A DNA stretch of 10,880 nucleotides from UHGV virus genome UHGV-0354908, one strand, 5' to 3'. Numbering within the stretch: the stretch's first letter is position 1; each line of letters begins with the position of its first letter. The notes beneath the pieces were generated by a model, which was not told the DNA's origin, ran no database searches, and was given only the letters and a program-made list of their open reading frames with translations. Below, piece by piece: positions 1-1,324 of the stretch. Position numbers and translations under genes: made by a program. This DNA comes from a virus.

Positions 1-175
1 GTGCTGGGTTATATTTAGCCCTGCCGGTGACAATAGCGTAACGGAAAACCTCTCCGCATCTTCTGCGGGCTTTATTGGCTCTCTCCATTGCCCCGCGCTC
101 TTCAAATCTGCGGATTACTTCCAGCAGTTGCATCGGCTCAATATCTTGAATTTCAAGGCCGCCGATGATAGGTAA
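1..175 (-). pseudogene. Inverted, 5'-truncated fragment of a second P4-family integrase gene; continues beyond the left window edge
   Basis: The reverse complement of 1-175 aligns without gaps to nt 541-716 of the integrase in this window, with 9 mismatches. Translated on the - strand it gives LPIIGGLEIQDIEPMQLLEVIRRFEERGAMERANKARRRCGEVFRYAIVTGRAKYNPA. Eight of the nine differences are synonymous and one is D->E. There is no in-frame start codon upstream on the - strand (stop at 260-262), so the copy lacks about 67 N-terminal codons. Confidence 0.75.
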
Positions 176-1324
176 GTTAAGCAGATTGAAGCAGCAAAGC
201 CGAAAGAAAAACCATACCGCCTTCTCGATGGTAATGGCCTGTACCTTTATGTCCCTGTATCAGGGAAAAAGGTATGGCAGCTTCGCTACAAGATTGACGG
301 TAAGGAGAAAGTCCTGACCGTAGGAAAATATCCGCTAATGACTTTGCAGGAGGCAAGGGATAAGGCATGGACTGCGAGGAAAGACATCTCGGTTGGCATC
401 GATCCGGTAAAGGCGAAAAAGGCTTCGTCTAACAACAATTCCTTTAGTGCGATTTACAAAGAATGGTACGAGCACAAGAAGCAAGTATGGTCTGTAGGGT
501 ATGCGACTGAACTTGCCAAAATGTTTGACGACGACATTTTACCTATCATCGGCGGTCTTGAGATTCAGGATATTGAGCCGATGCAACTGCTGGAAGTAAT
601 CCGCAGATTTGAAGATCGCGGTGCAATGGAGCGAGCCAACAAAGCCCGCAGAAGATGCGGCGAGGTTTTCCGTTACGCTATTGTCACCGGAAGGGCTAAA
701 TATAACCCAGCACCTGACCTTGCTGACGCCATGAAGGGATACCGCAAGAAGAACTTCCCGTTTCTTCCTGCAGACCAGATCCCGGCATTCAATAAAGCAC
801 TGGCAACATTTTCAGGAAGTATCGTATCGCTCATTGCCACCAAGGTTTTACGCTACACAGCCCTAAGAACAAAAGAGCTTCGTTCCATGCAATGGAAGAA
901 CGTCGATTTTGAAAACAGGATTATCACCATTGACGCCAATGTGATGAAGGGACGCAAAATTCATGTGGTCCCGATGTCAGACCAGGTGGTTGAACTTCTC
1001 ACTACGCTAAGCTCAATCACCAAACCAGTATCAGAGTTTGTTTTTGCCGGGCGCAACGATAAGAAGAAGCCAATCTGCGAGAACGCGGTATTGCTTGTGA
1101 TCAAACAAATCGGCTATGAAGGTCTGGAAAGCGGTCACGGATTCAGGCATGAATTCAGCACGATTATGAACGAGCACGAATGGCCTGCCGACGCCATTGA
1201 AGTGCAACTGGCACATGCCAACGGCGGATCTGTGCGTGGGATTTACAACCATGCACAGTATCTCGATAAGCGCAGAGAAATGATGCAATGGTGGGCGGAC
1301 TGGCTTGATGAAAAGGTGGAGTGA
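176..1324 (+). CDS. int: Tyrosine site-specific integrase, P4 / IntS-like; no canonical start codon at the 5' end (first ATG at 338)
   Basis: The frame is open from 176 (stop TAA at 173-175) to TGA at 1322-1324. Residues encoded by 176-337 (VKQIEAAKPKEKPYRLLDGNGLYLYVPVSGKKVWQLRYKIDGKEKVLTVGKYPL) match the conserved N-terminal arm-binding region of P4-type integrases, and the C-terminal part (HGFRHEFSTIMNE..., LAHANGGSVRGIYNHAQY) matches the catalytic region. There is no ATG, GTG or TTG in frame between 176 and 338, so the six-frame track calls 338..1324 (328 aa). Confidence 0.85.
   Translation, partial: VKQIEAAKPKEKPYRLLDGNGLYLYVPVSGKKVWQLRYKIDGKEKVLTVGKYPLMTLQEARDKAWTARKDISVGIDPVKAKKASSNNNSFSAIYKEWYEHKKQVWSVGYATELAKMFDDDILPIIGGLEIQDIEPMQLLEVIRRFEDRGAMERANKARRRCGEVFRYAIVTGRAKYNPAPDLADAMKGYRKKNFPFLPADQIPAFNKALATFSGSIVSLIATKVLRYTALRTKELRSMQWKNVDFENRIITIDANVMKGRKIHVVPMSDQVVELLTTLSSITKPVSEFVFAGRNDKKKPICENAVLLVIKQIGYEGLESGHGFRHEFSTIMNEHEWPADAIEVQLAHANGGSVRGIYNHAQYLDKRREMMQWWADWLDEKVE

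Follow-up and report, generated by a model that had tools for sequence, protein, structure and literature searches.

Two pieces of integrase coding sequence stand head to head at the left end of UHGV virus genome UHGV-0354908, of which a stretch of 10,880 nucleotides, here called the window, was analysed. Does this arrangement record a rearrangement between two integrative elements, or did it arise while the sequence was being produced? An earlier note, made from the letters alone, read it as the scar of an inversion, or of a tandem or nested integration at one att site, that may have immobilised the prophage. The evidence assembled here argues that both ends of the window very probably carry a technical artefact of some kind and not a genome structure, and that a chimeric assembly is a more likely outcome than a rearrangement. 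This explanation is favoured because an equivalent blunt strand flip, located in an IS903B element, is present at the opposite end of the window. The underlying biology is ordinary, namely a known serotype-converting prophage at argW with an IS903B insertion. Feature coordinates are compiled in Table 1.

Table 1. Features of the 10,880-nt window (gene positions refer to intS; L021 is the locus whose IS903B copy served for comparison).
Feature	Position	Strand	Remarks
Inverted fragment of intS, allele "B"	1..175	-	gene nt 373-547, codons 125-182, central core-binding domain
Left strand-flip junction, 175/176	173..178	.	blunt; inserted bases 0, microhomology 0/0
intS, prophage integrase IntS, tyrosine recombinase, allele family "A"	176..1324	+	99.6% identity to MRSN346647 intS
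Part of forward intS homologous to the inverted arm	539..713	+	gene nt 373-547
Three-site patch, gene positions 1068, 1074, 1089 (G, G, A)	1234..1255	+	allele B state
gtrA/yfdG	1488-1850	+	O-antigen glucosylation module; RefSeq annotation of MRSN346647
gtrB	1847-2764	+	O-antigen glucosylation module
Serotype-specific glucosyltransferase	2772-4244	+	O-antigen glucosylation module (1488..4244)
SfV/Mu-like tail genes	4274..10647	-	Pfam on L010; annotation of MRSN346647
IS903B, right-hand 70 nt	10661..10730	-	100% identity to L021 1966 to 1897; IS of 1,057 bp
Second strand flip, same IS903B	10731..10880	+	IS positions 592-741, 150 nt; 100% identity to L021 1501-1650

A repeat finder reported the left-hand structure as an inverted repeat (I1) with arms of 175 nt at 1-175 and 539-713, 95% complementary and separated by a spacer of 363 nt; the outer limit of the repeat (1/713) is imposed by the window edge. 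When the reverse complement of the first arm was compared base by base with the second, 9 mismatches and 0 gaps were counted. Eight of these are synonymous (seven at third codon positions, plus one CGA/AGA arginine pair), and the sole non-synonymous difference is GAT to GAG (D to E) at window position 616. The gap-free match, its substitution pattern and the bracketing of a spacer by imperfect inverted arms, all described in the earlier note, hold up, with two corrections: the second arm had been placed at 541-716, and the spacer had been given as 365 bp. Homology between the arms stops sharply at 175/176, beyond which the sequences are unrelated, and the forward frame opens there without a start codon; on both points the direct comparison bears the first reading out. 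The two integrase copies do meet head to head in this sequence, and neither has a usable start. An in-frame TAA at 173-175 directly precedes the first codon of the forward frame.

That codon, GTT at 176, is the fourth of intS. In intact genes ATGCTCACC precedes GTTAAG, a start found in all intact intS genes whose 5' end was read, so that the missing 5' part of the coding sequence amounts to the first 9 nt only (ATGCTCACC); the promoter and the argW/attL side are absent as well. The forward gene thus has no complete reading frame, and its first in-frame ATG, GTG or TTG lies at 338. Its 176-1321 translation matches PF13356 Arm-DNA-bind_3 (2.8e-24), PF22022 Phage_int_M (5.7e-28) and PF00589 Phage_integrase (1.8e-39), that is, the arm-binding, central core-binding and catalytic domains by which a tyrosine recombinase is recognized, and a near-identical gene is named intS in RefSeq. 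At the DNA level the forward gene is 99.6% identical to the intS gene of E. coli MRSN346647, with 5 mismatches. The relationship extends far beyond the integrase, the whole of 176-10660 forming a single collinear block with the MRSN346647 chromosome with 5 mismatches in 10,485 nt.

Comparison with this and other relatives shows what the unrearranged locus looks like. At the MRSN346647 locus, NZ_CP018206.1 3,219,000-3,232,000, an intact intS stands beside tRNA-Arg (argW) and is followed by gtrA/yfdG, gtrB, a serotype-specific glucosyltransferase gene and Mu/SfV-like tail and baseplate genes; this is the comparison with related genomes that the earlier note had proposed. Intact intS genes are also present in K-12, EF5-18-41, PK6, WCHEC050613 and the locus L010, and the 5' end is intact in a further locus, L001. 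A tRNA precedes intS in MRSN346647, EF5-18-41, K-12, PK6 and WCHEC050613. No tRNA was found in the window, where intS lacks the adjoining tRNA-Arg (argW) and the attL about 160 nt upstream. The forward copy has the same three domains and the same downstream gtrA-gtrB-gtr(type) order as the IntS of CPS-53/KpLE1 and related argW phages, a P4-type tyrosine recombinase. It differs from the IntS of CPS-53/KpLE1 in lacking the first 3 codons, the promoter and the tRNA-Arg/attL, in whose place stands an inverted fragment of another allele.

This fragment lacks a start codon and is cut off by the window edge. It is identical (100% over 175 nt) to intS in three complete genomes, EF5-18-41, Nord122 and PCP07083; against natural intS genes the megablast E value was 1e-85, far beyond chance, with 0 mismatches to EF5-18-41, 9 to MRSN346647 and 12 to K-12. 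Its translation matches positions 34-90 of Phage_int_M (E = 4e-19). The corresponding gene of EF5-18-41, here intS-B, adjoins argW and lies at the border of a P22-like prophage. Alleles B and A (the MRSN type) can be told apart at 47 of 1,158 sites, most of the differences being synonymous, and are about 96% identical; they have common stretches of 32-131 nt, and gene positions 10-144 are the same in both. Judged by these matches, the inverted piece is a second natural intS allele, neither a copy of the neighbouring gene nor a sequencing error. Because it matches a natural argW prophage allele at 100% and the differences between A and B are mostly synonymous, the earlier note was right to see in it a second integrase gene under purifying selection and not an error of sequencing. 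It had also suggested that 1-175 and the forward gene might match two different prophage integrases when searched separately, and they did: the first matched that of the P22-like prophage of EF5-18-41 and the second that of MRSN346647.

Two such alleles can reside side by side. In E. coli TUM9754 (L015, NZ_CP128939.1, 40681-47966) two complete intS genes, pointing the same way, form a tandem beside argW, which is a natural example of serial integration at the argW att site. The likeness to the window is that of a double lysogeny, with two diverged intS alleles from different prophages at one att site. The difference lies in the arrangement: both TUM9754 genes are complete, direct and each situated after an att region, whereas in the window one is inverted and both are truncated at positions that are not att sites. 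Since serial integration yields direct and not inverted copies, as TUM9754 illustrates, the proposed origin by tandem integration does not fit. Between its two intS genes TUM9754 carries a small remnant with an O-antigen polymerase, an IS1 and a recombinase.

The junction itself was then sought in other sequences. A 160-nt query centred on it was not matched across the junction in any of 5,426 complete E. coli genomes, all matches ending there. Exact scans returned 0 matches to the junction 32-mer in genome, metagenome and viral contig collections and 0 matches to the junction 21-mer in genome and metagenome collections. The truncated integrase product, looked up exactly from the possible starts 338, 344 and 521, was absent among 153 billion gene positions, a result that may be invalid for start 344, as a TTG start would be stored as M. 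A genuine rearrangement would be expected to recur in independent assemblies or in relatives, and this one was not found to do so. There is no att site at the left junction, which coincides with no att position. Neither at this junction nor at its counterpart on the right did we find microhomology or an inverted repeat able to support a template switch.

That counterpart lies within an insertion sequence. The window departs from MRSN346647 at 10660/10661 and enters IS903B exactly at its 18-bp terminal inverted repeat, GGCTTTGTTGAATAAATC. With its boundary at the terminal repeat, the IS903B at 10661 is a genuine insertion that MRSN346647 lacks; it separates the DNA-circularization gene from the tape-measure gene. 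At 10730/10731 the sequence passes to the opposite strand 396 nt further into IS903B and continues for 150 nt, exactly to the window edge. This junction is blunt, with microhomology of at most 2 nt. No single-piece match spanning it was obtained in at least 5,000 plasmid records or E. coli genomes, and an exact scan showed it to be absent from viral contigs. The anomaly is accordingly not specific to the integrase locus, the flip in IS903B at 10730/10731 being of the same kind. As a separate observation, copies on Klebsiella pneumoniae plasmids match the IS903B sequence at 100% identity, and the best listed E. coli chromosomal copy matches it at about 92-95%.

Both flips are blunt, lead to opposite-strand sequence 363-397 nt away and end in a flipped piece that reaches the window edge. 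The flipped pieces have read-like lengths (175 nt on the left, 150 nt on the right), and in each case the joined parts face each other like the mates of one paired-end fragment. On the left, gene positions run from 547 down to 373 and then upward from 10, for which the implied fragment (gene 10..547) measures 538 nt; on the right, L021 positions run from 1966 down to 1897 and then from 1501 to 1650, for which the implied fragment is one read length plus 396 nt, or about 550 nt. A blunt flip, a distance of about one insert length and a flipped part at the edge, the three marks by which facing mates at a contig end can be recognized, were thus found at both ends. Two independent inversions, each spanning about 400 nt and each lying 150-175 nt from an edge, are very unlikely, and one technical cause explains both, which argues for an artefact. 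Judged from its two ends, the window is probably an entire short-read contig.

The assembly of unsplit or concatenated paired-end reads, in which the first read is followed by the raw second read, is a common data-handling error. Such concatenation predicts blunt flips, parts that face each other one insert apart, and a flipped part of read length at the contig end. The look so predicted is shared by both window ends, with the difference that the flipped parts, 175 and 150 nt, are not of one length. As the specific mechanism, read-pair concatenation is the most likely one, with, in our judgment, about an even chance of being correct. The flips would have come either from unsplit or concatenated mates joined without reverse-complementing, or from single chimeric reads kept at the contig tips. 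The real locus would be an SfV/Mu-like, O-antigen-modifying prophage at argW with an intact intS, as in MRSN346647, and with IS903B. Allele B would have been in the sample too, contributed either by a second strain or by a P22-like argW prophage of the same genome. On the left, a minus-strand read of allele B (547 to 373) would have been joined raw to plus-strand sequence starting at gene position 10. The second mate would fall within the stretch common to A and B (gene 10-144), and the assembly would then pass into the allele A prophage; because the alleles are identical over that stretch, a fragment of allele B can merge seamlessly into an allele A contig. At the right end, the sequence would run to IS position 989 (L021 1897) and then take up 150 nt of the opposite strand from 396 nt further on.

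The artefact has its own requirements. The unequal lengths of the flipped pieces mean that trimmed or unequal reads are needed. Most assemblers clip low-coverage tips, so tips retained at both ends imply low coverage or a permissive pipeline. Logan assemblies, for instance, are built as k=31 graphs straight from SRA spots, with only singleton k-mers discarded (PMC12424806). In a check for a stop at k-1, the distance past the last site that distinguishes the copies came to 22 nt at the left end and to 19-28 nt, according to the IS variant, at the right. No specific description of strand flips as an artefact of contig ends came up in a literature search.

The forward gene adds an observation of its own. 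All 5 differences from MRSN346647 across the 10.5-kb block fall in intS, and all 5 carry the allele B base; were they randomly spread over the block, the chance that all 5 would lie in intS is, by simple arithmetic, about 1.6e-5. B-state bases at all five intS differences would be expected of a consensus to which reads of both alleles contributed. At two of these sites, 30 and 57, the A family itself varies, WCHEC050613 having the state seen in the window, so that the only B-specific sites are those of the patch at 1068, 1074 and 1089, where all three A-family alleles examined have A, A and T. A view of the forward gene as a B/A/B/A mosaic is weakened by the variation of sites 30 and 57 within the A family. 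The patch, together with the confinement of the differences to intS, could reflect a mixed-allele consensus, or gene conversion with the same appearance. It could be held against the artefact that the B-type patch and a real junction might both arise biologically in a double lysogen.

Such a double lysogen is the starting point of the main biological alternative. Two tandem argW prophages, a P22-like one with intS-B followed by an SfV-like one with intS-A, would have undergone an illegitimate recombination that flipped the stretch bounded by intS-B nt 373 and intS-A nt 9, setting the reverse complement of intS-B (547..373) against intS-A nt 10, inactivating both integrases and locking the prophages in place. 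In its favour, tandem argW double lysogeny with two intS alleles occurs in nature, in TUM9754, allele B is a genuine argW prophage integrase, and gene conversion between co-resident copies could account for the B-type patch at 1234-1255. A single event with such end points would, moreover, give exactly the junction observed. However, that junction was met in 0 of 5,426 complete E. coli genomes and in none of the large contig collections, it shows neither homology nor microhomology, and it lies away from att sites. The model leaves the flip in IS903B unexplained, for which another blunt inversion, unrelated but of similar span, would have to be assumed, and it does not account for the fact that both flipped pieces end at window edges. 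We consider a real inversion in a double lysogen unlikely, and its explicit form, a blunt inversion of about 40 kb between intS-B 372/373 and intS-A 9/10 that decapitates both integrases of a tandem lysogen and makes the junction real, quite improbable. The reading of the locus as a rearrangement scar, whether by inversion or by tandem or nested integration, is thus not borne out, the junction being blunt, non-att and found nowhere else and a matching flip standing at the other window end; on the same evidence the idea of an immobilised prophage loses its support. An IS-mediated or integrase-mediated origin was rejected, as neither junction lies at an IS terminus or an att site.

Other technical routes to the same sequence were weighed as well. 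Chimeras may form in vitro, during phi29 multiple displacement amplification (MDA) or through template switching or fold-back in library preparation, when a displaced 3' end primes anew on a neighbouring strand of the other polarity and the chimeric reads are kept at contig tips. Among MDA chimeras, 85% join segments in inverted orientation with loss of the sequence between them, and the segments mostly come from one and the same molecule, less than 10 kb from each other (PMC1855051). Both flips in the window, joining segments 363-397 nt apart, are within that distance, and both sides of the left junction fit one molecule of allele B; the inverted chimeras of Lasken and Stockwell (2007, PMC1855051) likewise join, in inverted orientation, segments of one locus that lie a few hundred nt from each other. 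The junctions themselves look different. MDA chimeras usually have 2-21 bp of complementarity, and 93.5% of the proximal inverted ones have at least 2 bp (PMC1855051); in the window the overlap is 0 at the left junction and at most 2 nt at the right one, a chance level. Amplification also predicts no link of the flipped segment to the contig edge or to fragment size, yet the flipped pieces lie at the edges, in mate-pair geometry, at both ends. We regard chimeras formed in vitro as a possible but doubtful source; they too would be artefacts, produced by another mechanism. A mis-join arising in the de Bruijn graph only, through a k-mer that is shared or palindromic between alleles or strands and with no chimeric read, appears highly improbable. 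It is true that alleles about 96% identical with common stretches of 32-131 nt would tangle a graph of small k, and that the forward gene resembles a mixed A/B consensus. Still, neither junction has sequence shared between its sides, and no k-mer of 21 nt or more common to both sides of the junction was found, so the junction-spanning k-mers did not come from genuine sequence; a hairpin path, for its part, would fold back perfectly on the same positions, where the window instead jumps 363 nt. For a like reason we rejected a hairpin telomere and a sequencing fold-back, as either would give a perfect palindrome instead of a 363-nt jump to another allele.

If the inversion were true, two prophages and an O-antigen-modifying gtr module would have become fixed in the chromosome, and a real junction would add one more case of prophage domestication by integrase loss, which is of modest interest. 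If the flips are an artefact, they serve as a quality warning: an inverted "paralog" fragment that lies no more than about a read length from a contig end should not be taken for a rearrangement, and inspection of the opposite contig end offers a cheap diagnostic.

Between intS and the insertion sequence, the window carries the glucosylation module and the tail genes. The products of the glucosylation module, identical to those used for the Pfam search, match GtrA_DPMS_TM, Glycos_transf_2 and Glucos_trans_II. The minus-strand block that follows encodes tail-fibre assembly, tail fibre and baseplate proteins (Mu Gp48, J/gp47, GP46, Gp45 and Gp44-like) and a DNA circularization protein, and these tail genes are 96-98% identical to those of Shigella phages SfI, SfIV, SfV and SfII. 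The annotated 490-aa glucosyltransferase product is widespread (960 blocks). An identical 490-aa product, with homologues of gtrA and gtrB of the same lengths, is encoded in nine further loci, L002-L009 and L011 (10001-11473 in each), where the gtr genes lie beside a type VI secretion locus and dinI and no integrase was called upstream; in most of these loci the gtr cassette is followed by a different tail module that is not Mu-like. The cassette has evidently been exchanged between unrelated prophages, if its occurrence in such different surroundings is taken as a guide.

Two smaller features of this region were recorded. An intact tail-fibre ORF of 323 aa occupies 4675-5646 on the minus strand, and L010 has a gene call of equal length (323 aa) at the corresponding position. 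The identical DNA of MRSN346647 bears no more than a partial "carbohydrate kinase" pseudogene in its annotation (window 5305-5646), which is probably an error in the reference. Where the convergent glucosyltransferase and tail-fibre assembly genes meet, an inverted repeat at 4257-4330, with 26-nt arms that are 77% complementary and 22 nt apart, may serve as a bidirectional terminator and is noted as a candidate.
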